This document shows, one piece after another, positions 6,106-17,842 of a stretch of 17,842 nucleotides of DNA. Origin of the DNA: a virus. A program made the translations under genes and the position numbers. Position 1 is the first letter of the stretch, and every line of letters starts with the position of its first letter. The stretch lies in the UHGV virus genome UHGV-1912862; one strand, written 5' to 3'. Under the pieces are notes generated by a model. It was not told where the DNA came from, searched no databases, and saw only the letters and a program-made list of their open reading frames with translations.

Positions 6106-11127
<5,022 letters not shown>

Positions 11128-11193: not shown

Positions 11194-11730
11194 ATGCGTA
11201 AATTATGTGCTGTTATTCTGTCCACAGTAGTCTGGCTGGTCGCCGCTGGTACGCCAGCGAGCGCAGCAGAGCATCAGTCCACACTAAGCGCCGGGTATCT
11301 TCAGACCCATACTGATATGCCCGGCAACGATGACCTGAAGGGCATTAACGTGAAATACCGTTATGAATTTACGGACACGCTGGGGCTGGTGACGTCATTC
11401 AGTTATGCCAATGCCAAAGATGAGCAAAAAACGCATTACAGCGATACCCGCTGGCATGAAGATTCAGTGCGTAACCGCTGGTTCAGCATGATGGCGGGGC
11501 CGTCTGTACGCGTGAATGAATGGTTCAGTGCTTATGCGATGGCAGGTGTGGCTTACAGCCGTGTTTCGACGTTCTCCGGGGATTATCTCCGCGTAACTGA
11601 CAACAAGGGGAAAACGCACGATGTGCTGACCGGAAGTGATGACGATCGCCACAGCAACACGTCTCTGGCGTGGGGAGCTGGCGTGCAGTTTAACCCGACC
11701 GAATCCGTGGCCATTGATATTGCTTATGAA
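11194..11730 (+). CDS. lom: Lom-family outer membrane protein (Ail/OmpX/Lom beta-barrel), allele copy A, 3' end lost at scaffold join 11731-11740
   Basis: MRKLCAVILSTVVWLVAAGTPASAAEHQSTLSAGYLQTHTDMPGNDDLKGINVKYRYEFTDTLG... Signal peptide plus beta-strand pattern. GAGAGG Shine-Dalgarno at 11183-11188. Confidence 0.8.
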
Positions 11731-11740
11731 NNNNNNNNNN
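11731..11740. other. Scaffold join (10 N); 11741-12332 re-reads about 11140-11730 (terminator plus lom)
   Basis: N-run followed by a diverged copy; the lom signal-peptide region differs markedly. Confidence 0.85.
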
Positions 11741-11747
11741 CAATACG

Positions 11748-11771
11748 GGCGCCAGAAATGGCGCCTTTTTT
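11748..11771 (+). terminator. Second copy of the post-J terminator (GGCGCCA-gaaa-TGGCGCC then T6) inside the re-read block
   Basis: Same hairpin as 11147-11172 with G-C/A-T compensatory changes in the stem. Confidence 0.5.
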
Positions 11772-11795
11772 ATTGCAGAAAAGCGAGAGGTAATT

Positions 11796-12395
11796 ATGCG
11801 TAAAGTTTATGCAGCCATTTTGTCCGCAGCCATCTGTCTGGCCGTATCCGGTGCGCCTGCATGGGCATCTGAGCAGCAGGCCACACTGAGCGCAGGGTAT
11901 CTTCATGCCCGTACGAACGCTCCCGGCAGCGATAATCTGAACGGGATTAACGTGAAATACCGTTATGAGTTTACGGACACGCTGGGGCTGATTACGTCAT
12001 TCAGTTATGCCAACGCTGAAGATGAGCAAAAAACGCATTACAGCGATACCCGCTGGCATGAGGATTCCGTGCGTAACCGCTGGTTCAGCGTGATGGCGGG
12101 ACCGTCTGTGCGCGTGAATGAATGGTTCAGCGCGTATGCGATGGCGGGGGTGGCTTACAGCCGTGTTTCGACCTTCTCCGGGGATTATCTGCAGGTGACC
12201 GACAACAAGGGGAAAACGCACGATGTGCTGACCGGAAGTGATGACGGTCGCCACAGCAACACGTCTCTGGCGTGGGGGGCTGGCGTGCAGTTTAACCCGA
12301 CCGAATCCGTGGCCATTGATATTGCTTATGAAGGCTCCGGCAGTGGCGACTGGCGCACTGACGGTTTCATCGTGGGTGTCGGTTATAAATTCTGA
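11796..12395 (+). CDS. lom: Lom-family outer membrane protein, allele copy B, complete, 199 aa
   Basis: MRKVYAAILSAAICLAVSGAPAWASEQQATLSAGYLHARTNAPGSDNLNGINVKYRYEFTDTLGLITSFSYANAEDEQKTHYSDTRWHEDSVRNRWF...GFIVGVGYKF. C-terminal aromatic residue typical of OMP barrels. Confidence 0.9.
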   Translation: MRKVYAAILSAAICLAVSGAPAWASEQQATLSAGYLHARTNAPGSDNLNGINVKYRYEFTDTLGLITSFSYANAEDEQKTHYSDTRWHEDSVRNRWFSVMAGPSVRVNEWFSAYAMAGVAYSRVSTFSGDYLQVTDNKGKTHDVLTGSDDGRHSNTSLAWGAGVQFNPTESVAIDIAYEGSGSGDWRTDGFIVGVGYKF

Positions 12396-12422
12396 TTAGC
12401 CAGGTAACACAGTGTTATGACA

Positions 12423-12449
12423 GCCCGCCGGTTCAGGCGGGCTTTTTTG
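12423..12449 (+). terminator. Rho-independent terminator after lom (GCCCGCC-ggttcag-GGCGGGC then T6)
   Basis: 7-bp GC stem and T-run, directly followed by GGAG (12451-12454) and the stf ATG at 12460. Confidence 0.65.
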
Positions 12450-12459
12450 TGGAGTGGAT

Positions 12460-14817
12460 ATGGCAGCAGTAAAAATCTCAGGTGTGCTGAAAGATGGTGC
12501 GGGAAAACCAATACAGAACTGCACTATTCAACTGAAGGCAAAGCGTAACAGCACCACTGTACTGGTGAACACGGTGGCCTCTGAAAATCCGGATGAAGCC
12601 GGGCGTTACAGCATGGACGTTGAGTATGGCCAGTATAGCGTTATCCTGCTGGTTGAAGGTTTTCCGCCTTCACATGCCGGGATCATTACCGTCTATGAAG
12701 GTTCCAGACCAGGTACGCTGAATGATTTTCTCGGTGCCATGACGGAAGATGATGTCATGCCGGAGGCATTGCGTCGTTTTGAGGCAATGGTGGAAGAAGC
12801 GGCACGCAACGCCGAAGCCGCCTCTCAGAGCGCAGCGGTGGCAAAGAAATCCGAAACTGCAGCGGCATCATCGAAGAACGCGGCGAAAACCTCAGAAACG
12901 AATGCAGCTAACAGCGCACAGGCGGCAGCGTCCTCGCAGACTGCATCGGCAAACTCCGCGACAGCAGCCAAAAAATCAGAAACCAACGCGAAAAACAGCG
13001 AGACAGCCGCAAAGACGAGCGAAACCAACGCAAAGTCCAGCCAGACGGCAGCGAAGACCAGCGAAACGAATGCCAAAGCCAGTGAAACTGCGGCAAAAAA
13101 CAGCCAGGTTGCAGCAGCCCAAAGCGAGAGCGCGGCAGCCGGTTCTGCGACTTCAGCAGCTGGATCAGCAACTGCTGCGGCTAACAGCCAGAAAGCTGCG
13201 AAGACGAGTGAAACTAACGCAAAGTCCAGCCAGACGGCAGCGAAGACCAGCGAAACGAATGCCAAAGCCAGCGAAACTGCGGCGAAAAGCAGTCAGGATG
13301 CAGCAGCCGAAAGCGAGAGTGCTGCAGCTGGTTCTGCAACAGCGGCAGCTAATAGCCAAAAAGCTGCAAAAACCAGTGAAACTAACGCAAAGGCGAGCGA
13401 AACAAAAGCAGCAGCCAGCGAGACAGAAGCAACGTCAGCCGCAACAAGAGCAGAGAATGCAGCCCGGATTGCAGAAGATGCCGCTGATCCTGCTTCTGTC
13501 CCTCCGCTTCCTGATATCTGGCTACCCTTGAATGATTCTCTGGAAGCGATAACAGGGTATGCGCCGGGGTATAAAACAATAACCATCGGCAGCGATGAAA
13601 TCACTGTGCCAGTTAATGGCATATGCCAATTTAGCCGGGCTTCATCTGCAACGTATATTGATAAGTCCGGGCATATTACCGTGGCAGGTAATAACGTTCC
13701 TCGTTTTGAAAAATATGGTTTGCTGATAGAGAATCAGCGAACAAACATGTTCGTAAATAGTTTTAATCCTGATGCGTGGAATAAAAGCGGTGGTATATCT
13801 GTAACATCATCAACAGATGAATTTGAGTTTAAATATGGACGTTTCACGGTAGGAAGCGATATAGCAGGAACGACAACAGGGAGAAATATATGCACAGTTG
13901 CTGGTAACAAAGGCATAGATGTGACTGGCGATGATCAGTACAGTAAAGGTCCGTATGTTACCGCGTCGTTCAGGGTAAGAAGTGATCTCAATGTTCGCGC
14001 ACGTATCCGTTTTGAACGGTATAACTCGGAAGGATACACCTTCCTTTGCGACGCCTATTTGTCATTACAGACCCATGAACTACAAATTACTGGTGGCAAT
14101 GCCCAGCTATTAACAGCAAACTTTGAAATCGACCCTGGTAGTGGATGGATATATTTTCAGGCAACACTGAAATGTCTGCCAGAATGGGGAATGGTTGGTA
14201 CGCAGCTGCAAATTGCAGCCGACAGAGCTGTGGGAGCTTTTGCAACAGGTGACTGGATAGAAGTAACCACCCCGCAATTCGAGTATGGTGCTTGTGCAAC
14301 TTCCTTCATCATAACGACAACAGAGCCAGCGACTCGTGCATCAGATTTATGTAAATTTCCGCTGATGAAAAATATGTATACCATGCCTTTTACGTTCATG
14401 GTGGAAGTCCATAAAAACTGGTTTATTTCTCATAATGCTGCACCGCGTGTCATTGATTCAGAAAATCACCAGTCCGGAGGCCCATTTATTATGGGGTTTG
14501 GTTCTTCTGGAACTATCAGTCAGGACGGTTATTCGTATTGCGATATAGGCGGGGCTAACCGACGTGTATATGAATCATGCGGAGTAAGGGATCTCGTTAT
14601 GGGATTCAGGGTTAAGGCTGACGGCATGACATGCTCATTTGCAAATAAGCATATAAGCGCTGAAACAAAAACAGTATGGAAATATATTCGTGAAGCAGCC
14701 GTGATTCGTATCGGGGGGCAAACGACGACAGGATTACGACACCTTAATGGTCATATAAAAAACCTCCGTTTCTGGAACAGAGCATTGTCAGATACGCAGC
14801 TTAAGGAATACGTATAA
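12460..14817 (+). CDS. stf: Side tail fibre protein Stf: conserved N-terminal attachment domain, Ala/Ser/Thr-rich repeat shaft, AT-rich C-terminal receptor-binding domain with a LamG-like terminal motif
   Basis: From ATG 12460: MAAVKISGVLKDGAGKPIQNCTIQLKAKRNSTTVLVNTVASENPDEAGRYSMDVEYGQYSVIL... (lambdoid Stf N-terminus). Repeats KTSETNAK(A/S)S(E/Q)TAAK. C-terminus ...GHIKNLRFWNRALSDTQLKEYV. The ORF-track start at 12454 is GTG; I prefer ATG 12460. Confidence 0.85.
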   Translation: MAAVKISGVLKDGAGKPIQNCTIQLKAKRNSTTVLVNTVASENPDEAGRYSMDVEYGQYSVILLVEGFPPSHAGIITVYEGSRPGTLNDFLGAMTEDDVMPEALRRFEAMVEEAARNAEAASQSAAVAKKSETAAASSKNAAKTSETNAANSAQAAASSQTASANSATAAKKSETNAKNSETAAKTSETNAKSSQTAAKTSETNAKASETAAKNSQVAAAQSESAAAGSATSAAGSATAAANSQKAAKTSETNAKSSQTAAKTSETNAKASETAAKSSQDAAAESESAAAGSATAAANSQKAAKTSETNAKASETKAAASETEATSAATRAENAARIAEDAADPASVPPLPDIWLPLNDSLEAITGYAPGYKTITIGSDEITVPVNGICQFSRASSATYIDKSGHITVAGNNVPRFEKYGLLIENQRTNMFVNSFNPDAWNKSGGISVTSSTDEFEFKYGRFTVGSDIAGTTTGRNICTVAGNKGIDVTGDDQYSKGPYVTASFRVRSDLNVRARIRFERYNSEGYTFLCDAYLSLQTHELQITGGNAQLLTANFEIDPGSGWIYFQATLKCLPEWGMVGTQLQIAADRAVGAFATGDWIEVTTPQFEYGACATSFIITTTEPATRASDLCKFPLMKNMYTMPFTFMVEVHKNWFISHNAAPRVIDSENHQSGGPFIMGFGSSGTISQDGYSYCDIGGANRRVYESCGVRDLVMGFRVKADGMTCSFANKHISAETKTVWKYIREAAVIRIGGQTTTGLRHLNGHIKNLRFWNRALSDTQLKEYV
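13031..13400 (+). repeat. Imperfect in-frame tandem repeats (about 170-190 nt units) within the stf shaft
   Basis: caaagtccagccagacggcagcgaagaccagcgaaacgaatgccaaagcc recurs at 13031 and 13220. Shorter KTSETNAK motifs span about 12890-13400. Confidence 0.6.
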
Positions 14818-15086
14818 TGCGAGATATAACATTACGATTCGATAACAGAGAACAGTTTAACGCAATTGTATATGACAGTGGCCTGTTCAGTCTTGAAGAA
14901 GAAAACGGGGTTCTTGTTGATGTTATTGGCTGCATTATCGATTACGAGGAGCCAGAAAACGAAAGATGTACAGGCATTGATCGCGGTGGTTTTTTCGTAA
15001 ACATGAGGATTGTTGATAGCAGTAAAAACATATCTTCTTTAATGCCTTTCATTACGACAGATCAGCATGTAAGGACATGGGCTTAA
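14817..15086 (+). CDS. Hypothetical small acidic protein (89 aa), translationally coupled to stf (TAATG overlap)
   Basis: ATG 14817 overlaps the stf stop. AT-rich like its neighbours. No motif recognised: MRDITLRFDNREQFNAIVYDSGLFSLEEENGVLVDVIGCIIDYEEPENERC... Confidence 0.5.
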   Translation: MRDITLRFDNREQFNAIVYDSGLFSLEEENGVLVDVIGCIIDYEEPENERCTGIDRGGFFVNMRIVDSSKNISSLMPFITTDQHVRTWA

Positions 15087-15098
15087 TGGAGTAAGACA

Positions 15099-16139
15099 AT
15101 GGTTACAAAAACAGTAATTCCTGATGACATCAAAACGCTAAAATCCGATGTTAGTAAACTAAAAACTGATCAAGGAAGCTATGCAACAAAATCATATGTA
15201 GACAATAAAACAACATGGAATAGTTATTGCAATGTAATCTATGATCAAAAGGCATTGCCGACCACTGGAACTATATTTAGCGGTAAGATTCACTTGTCAA
15301 ATAAGACAGGAGAAACCGAAAACGCTTATAGTGAGATGTACACCAGAAAAAATATTGACGGTACAAAAGATACAATGACAAGGATTGTCACACACAATGG
15401 AACAAAAGGTATCTTTTGGGATTTTAGCGATCTTTACGGCGGAACATTAATTTTTCCAGGCAGTGATGGTTACCTTAAGATGGGGAACTGTCTCATGTCG
15501 TATGGTGTGCGGGGAAGTAACGCGCTTATTAAGTTTGACTGCACAGACACATTACAAATCAAATATGCCAATCATGGGTCAACCATGACATTAAACACAC
15601 AGGGGACCGCTCATTCTGGCGCTACTACTAGTTTGTGGGGTAACTCTACCCGTCCGGTTGTATATGAAGTTGGTGCTGATGGTGGCGCGTATATGTTCTA
15701 TGCGCAGAAAAATACCGATAACACCTATATGTTAAGCGTTAATGGTGCATGTCATGCCACCGCATTTAACCAGCATTCCGACCGGGATCTGAAAGACAAC
15801 ATTCAGGTGATCGATAATGCAACCGACCGCATCCGTAAAATGAACGGCTATACATACACGCTTAAAGAAAACGGTATGCCCTATGCAGGTGTCATTGCAC
15901 AGGAAGCTCTGGAAGCAATCCCAGAAGTTGTCGGTTCCGCAATGAAATATCAGGACGGTGCAAGCGGATCGGAAGGTGAAGAAGGTGAACGTTATTACAC
16001 AGTAGATTATTCTGGTGTTACTGGCTTGCTTGTTCAGGTAGCCAGAGAGTCAGACGACAGAATAACAGTACTGGAAGAAGAAAACGCAGAATTAAGGCAA
16101 AGATTATCTGCAATTGAGGCGACGCTTGCGTCTAAATAA
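15099..16139 (+). CDS. Tail fibre/tailspike-like protein with C-terminal intramolecular chaperone (peptidase S74 / endosialidase-chaperone-type) domain, 346 aa
   Basis: GGAGTAAG Shine-Dalgarno before ATG 15099. C-terminal region ...NQHSDRDLKDNIQVIDNATDRIRKMNGYTYTLKE..YAGVIAQEALEAIPEVV...LEEENAELRQRLSAIEATL carries the SDxxLK and G(V/F)IAQE hallmarks plus a terminal coiled coil. AT-rich. Confidence 0.75.
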   Translation: MVTKTVIPDDIKTLKSDVSKLKTDQGSYATKSYVDNKTTWNSYCNVIYDQKALPTTGTIFSGKIHLSNKTGETENAYSEMYTRKNIDGTKDTMTRIVTHNGTKGIFWDFSDLYGGTLIFPGSDGYLKMGNCLMSYGVRGSNALIKFDCTDTLQIKYANHGSTMTLNTQGTAHSGATTSLWGNSTRPVVYEVGADGGAYMFYAQKNTDNTYMLSVNGACHATAFNQHSDRDLKDNIQVIDNATDRIRKMNGYTYTLKENGMPYAGVIAQEALEAIPEVVGSAMKYQDGASGSEGEEGERYYTVDYSGVTGLLVQVARESDDRITVLEEENAELRQRLSAIEATLASK

Positions 16140-16180
16140 TATTAAGGGCTATGCGCCCCGTTTTATTGGGTAGGATGAAA

Positions 16181-16474
16181 ATGGATATAACACCTTTTCT
16201 TCATGCGCTTTGTGCTGTGGCTGCGCAGGTACTGGTTGGTCTTTTTACCGGAAACTGGGCTTACGGGGCGATAGCCGGTTGTACATTCTTCATTGCGCGG
16301 GAACACACCCAGGCAGAATATCGCTGGATTGAAATGTTCGGGCATTGCAAGCGGATTAACATGCCGTGGTGGGGCGGTTTTGATCCGCGTGTTTGGGATG
16401 TGGCAAGCCTGATAGATTTTGCTGTGCCGGTGGTGGCGTGTCTGCTGGTCTGGCTGTTGGTTAATCGTGGGTGA
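16181..16474 (+). CDS. Small polytopic inner-membrane protein (about 97 aa, three hydrophobic segments), function unknown
   Basis: AGGA at 16172-16175 then ATG 16181 (the ORF track begins at 16151). Hydrophobic stretches FLHALCAVAAQVLVGLFTG, AYGAIAGCTFFIA, LIDFAVPVVACLLVWLLV. G+C is host-like, unlike the upstream cassette. Confidence 0.5.
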   Translation: MDITPFLHALCAVAAQVLVGLFTGNWAYGAIAGCTFFIAREHTQAEYRWIEMFGHCKRINMPWWGGFDPRVWDVASLIDFAVPVVACLLVWLLVNRG

Positions 16475-16484
16475 AAAAAGGTGA

Positions 16485-16604
16485 GCTGTATATGCAACGG
16501 AGGAAGAAATCTCGTTGCTGGAAGCATGGAAAAAGTATCGGGTATTGCTGAACCGTGTTGATACGTCAACTGCACAGGATATTGAATGGCCAGCACTGCC
16601 GTAG
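16485..16604 (+). pseudogene. tfa: 3' remnant of a tail fibre assembly gene (tfa); only the last ~40 codons remain
   Basis: Frame-3 translation [39 protein letters not shown]-stop matches the conserved Tfa C-terminus (..[33 protein letters not shown]..). An in-frame stop lies at 16482-16484 and there is no start codon. Confidence 0.7.
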
Positions 16605-16701
16605 GGTAAAACATATAAATTCTATAATTAGATGTATCTTTCCATTTACGGCAAGGAAGGGGGCTTGGAAGACGTAAAGCATCTCACACCGAGATTATTT
16701 T

Positions 16702-17292
16702 TTATATGTCAGGTGTCTGAAGTTTTGCTTTGGCTCTTAAAATGGTTTGCCGCGAGGTTTTGAATTCCCGGGCAATGGCACTTATACTTACACCTGACTT
16801 AATTCGTTCGAATACCACCTGTTTCTGTTCTTCATTTAACACAGGTGGTCGACCAAAACGTTTCCCTGCGCCGCGGGCTCTTACTATCCCGGAATGAGTG
16901 CGTTCAAGTAAAAGGTCTCGTTCAAATTCAGCGACTGCTGAAATTACTTGCATCATCATTTTTCCTGTTGGACTGGTCAGGTCAATGCCCCCCAATGCTA
17001 AGCAATGCACTCTGATACCTGTTTCGGTCAGTTGTTCCACTGTTTTCCTGATATCCATTGCATTACAACCAAGGCGATCCAGTTTTGTCACAATCAATTG
17101 ATCACCACATTTCAGGCGAGCAAGCAACCGGTTAAAACCAGGACGCTCACTGGTTGCTGCTGAGCCGCTAATGTGTTCTTCGATTATTTGCTGAGATTTG
17201 ATGTTAAAACCTGCACTTTCGATTTCCCGGCGTTGATTTTCGGTGGTCTGATCCAGCGTTGATATCCGACAGTAAGCAAAAATTCGAGACAT
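16702..17292 (-). CDS. pin: Serine recombinase of the DNA-invertase family (Pin/Gin/Hin-like), 196 aa
   Basis: [20 protein letters not shown]... has the resolvase/invertase N-terminal catalytic motif (Ser11) and a C-terminal HTH ([21 protein letters not shown]). Position after stf/tfa and length 196 aa match the PinR/PinQ arrangement of Rac/Qin prophages as I recall it. Confidence 0.88.
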
Positions 17293-17608
17293 AGTGAGAC
17301 TCTATACGAAATTGGTGTTCATATCATAATGCATCTCAGAAAATAATTATGATTATTTTTGTGCATATTTGTATGTACACGTTCGAAAATAAACGAATGC
17401 GTATGCAACCCCGTAATTTTGGTGAGACCCAAAATCGATTTTGTGAAAAATGGCTTTAACTCGGTTTGTTTTTCGAGTTCCGGGAGGACTCAAGGAAGAA
17501 GAATAGTGTTGCGTGTTATTTTAACCAGATTTCAAGTTGTTTGGTCGTGGAAAAGTGGAGCAAAATGTTGTTAAAGTGGAAAAATGATAAAAAAGTAAGT
17601 TTATTATA

Positions 17609-17842
17609 TTACATTTTACCATTTAAATTTTGGTTGTCTTTAAGAACTGATATCGCTGTTTGTAATAATTCTTTGTTATCCAGCCATGATTTTTTCTTTA
17701 TGTTTCCTTCAATGTAATCAAGCAATGTTCTGGTATTGATAGGTCTTCCCTGTTTTGCTACTTCCACTACAGCATCCCCTAGGATAATTCTTACTTCAGG
17801 AAGCTGCGCAGGGAACCACTTTAGGGTGTCTTTTGATTTCAT
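17609..17842 (-). CDS. Small protein (77 aa), YdfK/YnaE-like by synteny with pin
   Basis: Complete ORF MKSKDTLKWFPAQLPEVRIILGDAVVEVAKQGRPINTRTLLDYIEG...; the start codon coincides with the window edge. AT-rich. The identity rests on recalled Rac/Qin gene order (pin next to ynaE/ydfK), not on a search. Confidence 0.5.
   Translation of the reverse strand: MKSKDTLKWFPAQLPEVRIILGDAVVEVAKQGRPINTRTLLDYIEGNIKKKSWLDNKELLQTAISVLKDNQNLNGKM

Follow-up and report, generated by a model that had tools for sequence, protein, structure and literature searches.

Described tail fibre systems offer several precedents for small proteins encoded beside fibre genes. In bacteriophage T4, small separate connectors (gp35 and gp36) join the half-fibres of the long fibre, and in the Tfa group (lambda Tfa, Mu gpU, P2 gpG), each of whose members serves one type of tip and is encoded within the fibre operon, directly behind the fibre gene, some proteins stay bound to the fibre tip. 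Branched lateral fibres composed of LtfA and LtfB have been described for phage DT57C (Golomidova et al., 2016; Ayala et al., 2023). For phage IrisVonRoten (Bas32), a published model combines a proximal fibre with a protruding galectin-like C-terminal domain (Gp22) and a T-shaped distal fibre (Gp24); only these two proteins are modelled, and the small Gp23 is not discussed (Humolli et al., 2025; PMC11990801). Here we consider an open reading frame (ORF) of 89 amino acids (aa) in a stretch of 17,842 nucleotides (nt) from virus genome UHGV-1912862 (hereafter, the window), where it lies at 14817–15086 on the plus strand between the side tail fibre gene stf and a second fibre gene. We conclude, with a probability of roughly 85%, that its product is a fibre accessory protein tied to the tip of Stf.

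An earlier, sequence-only reading of the window had called this small acidic ORF unclassifiable, a description that fails. Translated from its ATG start, the ORF is a full-length member of PHROG 1361, a family of unknown function (E = 9.6e-31; residues 1–89 on profile positions 1–92 of 92), and it has no Pfam, NCBIfam or PADLOC match. Searches of phage genomes with tblastn matched four near-identical lambdoid phages derived from ECOR and recovered full-length homologues at 28–37% identity in T5-like phages and Seuratvirus. Using a profile built from the alignment of these phage-locus sequences, we retrieved 117 proteins, all of them standalone; 113 are full length (85–96 aa) and the others are shorter fragments. 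Homologues of 85–110 aa are found in lambdoid prophages, Jouyvirus, Drexlerviridae, Dhillonvirus, Queuovirinae, T5-like phages and rV5-like phages. Single-sequence searches returned few or no distant relatives (four matches with a word-index search and six in a library of 1.84 billion proteins, two of the six being low-complexity repeat artefacts and one a frameshifted read), and it took a profile to reach them. Among the 1.84 billion representative proteins, no fused form was detected.

Residues M1, D3, G38, R64 and W88 are invariant in the family, and F8, D35, I37, G58, N62, R86 and A89 are nearly so. The window protein has every conserved residue (D3, F8, D35, I37, G38, G58, N62, R64, R86 and W88). 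The ratio of nonsynonymous to synonymous substitution rates (dN/dS) of the gene has a median of 0.32 over 1731 pairs and is below 1 in 99.8% of them. The sequence-only reading had noted that a lack of conservation would point to a spurious ORF; given the 117 homologues and this dN/dS, the ORF is a genuine gene under selection and not a chance reading frame. The window allele occurs in 141 of 5426 complete Escherichia coli genomes, where the annotation is always “hypothetical protein”. In species-representative genomes an initial scan was empty, and a later query found the gene in Escherichia ruysiae, along with a fragment in Escherichia whittamii, only. The family is thus already catalogued but uncharacterised, and it is its functional context that is new here; literature queries by accession, phage name and topic yielded no paper that discusses the small protein. 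Two family members (P0093 and P0094) are recorded on E. coli plasmids or contigs of ~95–100 kb, which are possibly phage-plasmids. The small gene is disrupted by an insertion sequence in one locus (L204, 4316–4727), and truncated database proteins such as P0003 have a similar origin. In phage 4A7, it is the proximal fibre gene that is independently disrupted by an insertion sequence (L267, 2417–4833).

The arrangement at the gene start had been described from the letters alone, and this description is confirmed. The stop codon of stf, TAA, occupies 14815–14817, and its final A doubles as the first base of the ATG, forming a TAATG overlap at 14815–14819 on the plus strand. A Shine-Dalgarno sequence, AAGGA, lies within the end of stf at 14803–14807 (plus strand), 9 nt before the ATG. 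Coupled expression with stf, which had been suggested from the overlap, is plausible: 114 of 119 related loci retain an overlap, either of 1 nt (TAATG) or of 4 nt (ATGA), which is consistent with coupled translation of the two genes. From stf through the small ORF to the next gene, no site resembling a promoter or terminator intervenes; upstream of stf there is a terminator-like hairpin. The acidic and A+T-rich character reported for the ORF also holds. The protein contains 16 Asp and Glu residues versus 8 Lys and Arg residues (isoelectric point 4.4), and the G+C content of its gene is 0.389, compared to 0.443 in the C-terminal half of stf, 0.417 in the next gene and 0.563 in the J-lom region further upstream. 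Thus, the small ORF has the lowest G+C within a low-G+C block that begins in the C-terminal half of stf.

The fibre encoded upstream, Stf, is a proximal side tail fibre of 787 aa from a GTG start (12454–14817, plus strand). It consists of an N-terminal virion-attachment domain (PF08400; residues 5–134, E = 6e-66), an Ala-rich repeat shaft and a C-terminal module of ~440 aa with a galectin/LamG-like tip (13495–14814, plus strand), and it matches phrog_1419 over its full length. Within the module, residues 424–629 match the NCBIfam GTA head spike fiber domain (GTA_spike_fiber; E = 2e-12), and the C-terminal region shows a weak match to the RcGTA head-spike fibre (PDB 6tb9). The LamG-type C-terminus named in the sequence-only reading is represented by a sub-threshold match to Laminin_G_3 (E = 8e-4) in the last 40 residues, and the protein placed downstream in that reading is indeed one with a Peptidase_S74 domain. 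The Ala-rich shaft (12800–13400) is made up of SETNAK-type repeats, has a very strong AT skew (up to 0.6) and, in other frames as well as on the opposite strand, gives long spurious ORFs.

To which of its neighbours the small gene is linked becomes clear from other phages. It is present in lambdoid prophages, Seuratvirus (VogelGryff, SA126VB), T5-like phages (IrisVonRoten, AKFV33, L6jm, KookSpook), Drexlerviridae (tunus), Dhillonvirus (KarlBarth), Jouyvirus (Lambda_2G7a, ev207) and rV5-like phages (JeffSchatz), the last with a divergent form of 110 aa. In every lineage examined, it sits after a long fibre gene and usually before a second fibre gene. The N-termini of the upstream fibres vary with the tail to which they are attached. 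Homology over the last ~440 aa reaches the final residue in every locus. A scan of viral contigs for the Stf module, which also detected roughly 400 more distant relatives, gave 80 listed loci, and among these listed matches the small gene is present in 78. One of the two exceptions is a contig that ends at the fibre gene and the other is a small gene cut by an insertion sequence, leaving the association intact in all 78 informative loci. The same pairing of Stf-type module and small gene is seen in Drexlerviridae, Dhillonvirus, Jouyvirus and rV5-like phages. In a phage collection, the Stf module was found in 218 records, and two small-protein queries matched 40 and 161 records. Like its homologues, the window protein is a standalone product within the 85–110 aa range directly behind a fibre with the Stf-type C-terminal module. 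Thus, the co-occurrence survey that the sequence-only reading had proposed gives a clear answer: the small ORF accompanies the LamG-type C-terminus of Stf and not the S74 protein.

Recombination boundaries lead to the same partition. One locus (L009) is ~98% identical to the window across the stf C-terminus, the small gene and approximately the first 14 codons of the distal fibre; beyond this point, sliding-window identity shows the two to be unrelated until the next gene. Another locus (L055) shows the reverse pattern, with the stf C-terminus and small gene only ~50% identical to those of the window and the distal fibre and following gene mostly 70–100% identical per 60-nt window. Together, these mosaic boundaries imply that the Stf tip and the small gene are a single inherited unit and that the distal fibre is a separate one.

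The distal fibre of the window is a protein of 346 aa (15099–16139, plus strand) that matches phrog_4563 over its full length and carries a C-terminal intramolecular chaperone (Peptidase_S74; residues 227–278, nt 15777–15932, E = 6e-14); this domain is absent from the small protein. The two genes are separated by a 12-nt spacer (15087–15098, plus strand) that includes a GGAG ribosome-binding site of the distal gene. Fibres encoded at this position range from 227 to 586 aa and have bodies of several types that share little past an N-terminal motif. All begin with M-x-T-x-T-x-I-P-x-D-I-x-x-L-K, and these first 15 residues are their only constant part. In the window, this conserved peptide is MVTKTVIPDDIKTLK (15099–15143, plus strand), a presumed docking motif common to otherwise unrelated distal fibres. 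When viral contigs were searched for it by DNA pattern, 120 sites were recovered, 119 of them with enough upstream sequence, and in all 119 a small gene lies 2–12 nt upstream of the motif-bearing ORF (9–12 nt in 118). These loci comprise 59 distinct small proteins. The left recombination boundary of the distal cassette falls at the motif. An unrelated 227-aa fibre replaces the 346-aa fibre in loci where the stf C-terminus and the small gene are 99% identical. Judged from these comparisons, the downstream fibre behaves as a swappable cassette with a constant N-terminal plug.

The small gene, on the other hand, depends neither on which distal fibre follows nor on whether there is one. The proximal fibre and the small gene occur with no motif-bearing fibre in at least four lineages (Jouyvirus, a lambdoid group typified by locus L241, the group of locus L041, and rV5-like phages). 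In Jouyvirus, a gene for a 97-aa membrane protein directly follows the small gene, and in the L041 group a terminator-like hairpin lies directly 3′ of it. In these lineages the small gene is intact, with dN/dS of 0.22–0.38 in the Jouyvirus group and 0–0.27 in the L041 group, and its core residues, including the R-x-W tail, are equally conserved with or without a distal fibre. Because the gene is maintained under selection where no distal fibre exists, its conserved function concerns the proximal fibre or another constant feature, and not the distal fibre.

A model of the small protein was computed with AlphaFold2 as a monomer from the alignment of 113 sequences (mean predicted local distance difference test score 77, predicted template modelling score 0.67), which corresponds to moderate confidence. 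The predicted topology is beta-alpha-beta-beta-beta-beta-alpha. The last ~10 residues are modelled with low confidence, yet they bear the invariant R86 and W88, and we consider this C-terminal R-x-W tail a candidate partner-binding motif. In fold searches, the model matched generic alpha/beta structures in the PDB and nothing but uncharacterised small phage proteins in BFVD, and the family profile found nothing meaningful among the sequences of solved structures.

On this basis, we suggest the following scheme. The small protein, which is made from the Stf operon and inherited together with the LamG/galectin-like tip, would probably bind the tip via a conserved face of the beta-sheet and the invariant R-x-W tail, and may help the tip to mature, by analogy standing in for the Tfa of other lambdoid fibres. 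It could then stay on the fibre as part of a joint, onto which the second, exchangeable fibre would plug by its 15-residue N-terminal peptide. The combination of these steps, an assembly factor for the Stf tip that is subsequently retained as part of the joint, is the version that we tentatively favour, although we rate its chances as slightly below even. The further idea that the protein is a virion-resident universal socket on the LamG-like tip, accepting any fibre that bears the plug, we regard as doubtful.

Ojima et al. (2024) deleted the ORFs of phage DruSM1 singly, and the deletions of ORF22, ORF23 and ORF24 were all viable on a K-12 host, with no defence phenotype listed for ORF23. ORF22 is the proximal fibre, ORF23 the homologue of the small protein (the primer encodes ...PLREWA) and ORF24 the distal fibre. 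Viability of all three deletions on rough K-12 is as expected of lateral-fibre components.

The sequence-only reading had offered three roles for the ORF, namely a fibre-specific chaperone, an adaptor or a moron, and it is the two fibre-accessory roles that gain support, while the moron is argued strongly against. That the gene merely hitch-hikes in the cassette and has a function unrelated to the fibre (moron, anti-defence, exclusion or regulatory) might be suspected from the low G+C of this mosaic region, the cargo genes beside it and the lack of a known function for PHROG 1361. However, the same position in the fibre operon and the conserved stop/start overlap recur in at least six lytic and temperate lineages, there is no PADLOC match, and the DruSM1 ORF23 deletion altered none of the defence systems tested. 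In strictly lytic T5-like, Seuratvirus, Drexlerviridae and rV5-like phages, the gene lies inside the lateral-fibre operon, and this position, together with the PADLOC and DruSM1 results, makes a moron role very unlikely. Even less credible is a read-through of the stop codon, by which the small protein would become an N-terminal extension of the distal fibre. The two ORFs of the window do share a frame, with one TAA and four codons between them, and most loci have a spacer of 9 or 12 nt, as such a fusion would need. In four lineages, however (AKFV33, SA126VB, KarlBarth and VogelGryff), the spacer measures 10, 11 or 2 nt, so that a fusion is not conserved; the spacer also carries a normal ribosome-binding site of the distal gene, and fused proteins were not found.

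Explanations that involve the fibre are harder to separate. If the protein were purely a structural adaptor or hinge, with the joining of distal to proximal fibre as its sole role, as T4 gp35/gp36 might suggest, the location of its gene between two fibre genes would be natural, as would the finding that it accompanies every motif-bearing distal fibre (119 of 119). The T-x-T-x-I pattern at the distal N-terminus, read as strand-like, could extend the edge of the small protein's predicted sheet, in parallel with the strands that LtfA adds to LtfC in DT57C. We nevertheless consider this improbable, given that the four or more lineages lacking a distal fibre, plaque-forming Jouyvirus among them, retain an intact gene under purifying selection with the same conserved residues, and that hhalign detects no similarity to LtfC. 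A more serious but still rather unlikely possibility is that the protein is a released chaperone only, which aids folding or trimerisation of the Stf module and then leaves, so that the plug docks straight on Stf. Its small size and acidity, its probably translationally coupled gene directly behind the fibre gene, as for Tfa-type chaperones, and its strict linkage to the tip with selection persisting in the absence of a distal fibre are all compatible with this. The Tfa remnant described below marks a replaced Tfa-dependent tip, and the most conserved part of the Stf module, ~90 aa in length, could dock the equally conserved plug. Several points speak against a chaperone that departs. The protein is similar neither to Tfa nor to the S74 intramolecular chaperone nor to members of other chaperone families; the tip has been modelled as a protruding domain with a lectin-like fold (Humolli et al., 2025; PMC11990801), and such folds often form without help; and the gene order (proximal fibre, small gene, distal fibre) mirrors a physical connector.

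The reading of the protein as a tip-linked accessory factor that is retained in the joint has its own weak points. Lectin-like tip domains may fold without any helper. Co-occurrence cannot tell a released chaperone from a retained subunit, nor plug docking on the small protein from docking on Stf. Gel-band mass spectrometry of AKFV33 covered four bands only, and the small protein is not among them; the mass-spectrometry supplement for rV5 contains no peptides of the JeffSchatz-type homologue, although the rV5 orthologue itself was not identified, and neither data set is informative for a protein of ~10 kDa.

Further features of the window adjoin the fibre cassette. The distal fibre gene is followed by a gene for a small predicted membrane protein of phrog_1443 (function unknown; profile match and RefSeq annotation), which is 97 aa long at 16181–16474 on the plus strand, or 107 aa if the ATG at 16151 is used. 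This gene normally ends the cassette. Among lambdoid and Jouyvirus loci, it trails the distal fibre or, where this is missing, the small gene, with a spacing of 9–12 nt either way. Next is a C-terminal remnant of Tfa of 36 codons (16494–16604, plus strand; a RefSeq partial pseudogene), which suggests that the cassette, itself devoid of Tfa, displaced a fibre tip that depended on Tfa. On the minus strand, 16702–17292 encode a DNA invertase of the pin/hin type (Resolvase and HTH_7). An invertible fibre segment driven by this neighbour was considered and rejected, as no convincing inverted pair of crossover sites was found in 12400–17842; a single hix-like core at 14760–14771, inside the end of stf, is at chance level.

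The part of the window upstream of the small-ORF region is of a different quality. It contains 12 runs of N10 between 835 and 11740, flanked by near-duplicates that include repeated J segments (J region, 8171–10507) and two copies of lom (11194–11793 and 11796–12395), one of which an N run interrupts. The impression is of stitched or masked DNA, not of a single native sequence. At least 14 complete E. coli chromosomes match the segment that holds the small ORF (14400–16500) with 100% identity.

Side and lateral tail fibres largely determine the O-antigen types that a coliphage can reach, and the three-part module of lectin-tipped proximal fibre, small partner and plug-in distal fibre is common to lambdoid prophages and several lytic groups, including isolates proposed for biocontrol or kept as reference phages. 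Published fibre models have overlooked the small protein. If it is needed for tip assembly or for distal attachment, fibre swaps that omit the small gene could fail. If it acts as a socket, at least six unrelated phage lineages would share one plug-and-socket system for fibre swapping, and the small protein together with the 15-residue plug would provide a compact, portable rule for exchanging receptor-binding fibres and retargeting phages. For annotation, a “hypothetical protein” encoded behind a fibre labelled “prophage tail fiber N-terminal domain” or “head spike fiber domain” could be renamed as a putative fibre accessory protein.

Among described systems, Tfa proteins and branched lateral fibres are close to the module. 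Adjoining its cognate fibre gene as Tfa genes do, the small gene shows a mechanistic likeness to them that is no proof of membership. The sequence-only reading was right that the ORF has no resemblance to Tfa: neither the window protein nor any of the 113 family members matches Caudo_TAP at E ≤ 1. The small protein is also about half as large as Tfa, differs from it in predicted fold, and is paired with a lectin-like tip, whereas Tfa is paired with a Tfa-type tip.

In the T5-like phages DT57C and DT571-2 (LtfA-LtfB) and in phiEco32 (gp14-gp15), as in the window, a tail-anchored proximal fibre bears a separately encoded second fibre, and in all of them receptor-binding parts are exchanged horizontally. 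Unlike the window, however, DT57C has no small gene between ltfA and ltfB, the N-terminus of its LtfB (MSRPLMPKSG...) lacks the M-x-T-x-T-x-I-P-x-D-I-x-x-L-K peptide, and its proximal fibre ends in an S74 chaperone domain where the Stf of the window ends in a LamG-like tip. BLASTP of the AKFV33 proximal fibre against LtfB gave no alignment, which fails to place the module with docking of the DT57C/phiEco32 type. The AKFV33 distal fibre is homologous to the C-terminal half of DT57C LtfA. When LtfA (L063) is set against the two AKFV33 fibres (L033, orf137/orf135), its N-terminal ~205 aa match the proximal fibre and its C-terminal ~565 aa match the whole distal fibre; LtfA thus resembles both fibres fused covalently, minus the LamG-like tip and the small gene. 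This comparison indicates that the same fibre parts can be joined either covalently or via the small-gene module.

The collar protein LtfC of T5 and DT57C, a small separate protein that anchors fibres, is comparable in role to the proposed joint. N-terminal strands of the DT57C fibre LtfA add onto the sheets of LtfC, and this strand addition offers a plausible analogy for the docking of the plug. Direct kinship between the small protein and LtfC was considered and rejected (hhalign probability 0.2%). IrisVonRoten has the same three-gene module: over the last 440 aa, its Gp22 shares 51% identity with Stf, and its Gp23 is a member of the small family, 30% identical to the window protein, whereas its distal fibre is a T-shaped protein of 574 aa and that of the window is an S74 fibre of 346 aa.

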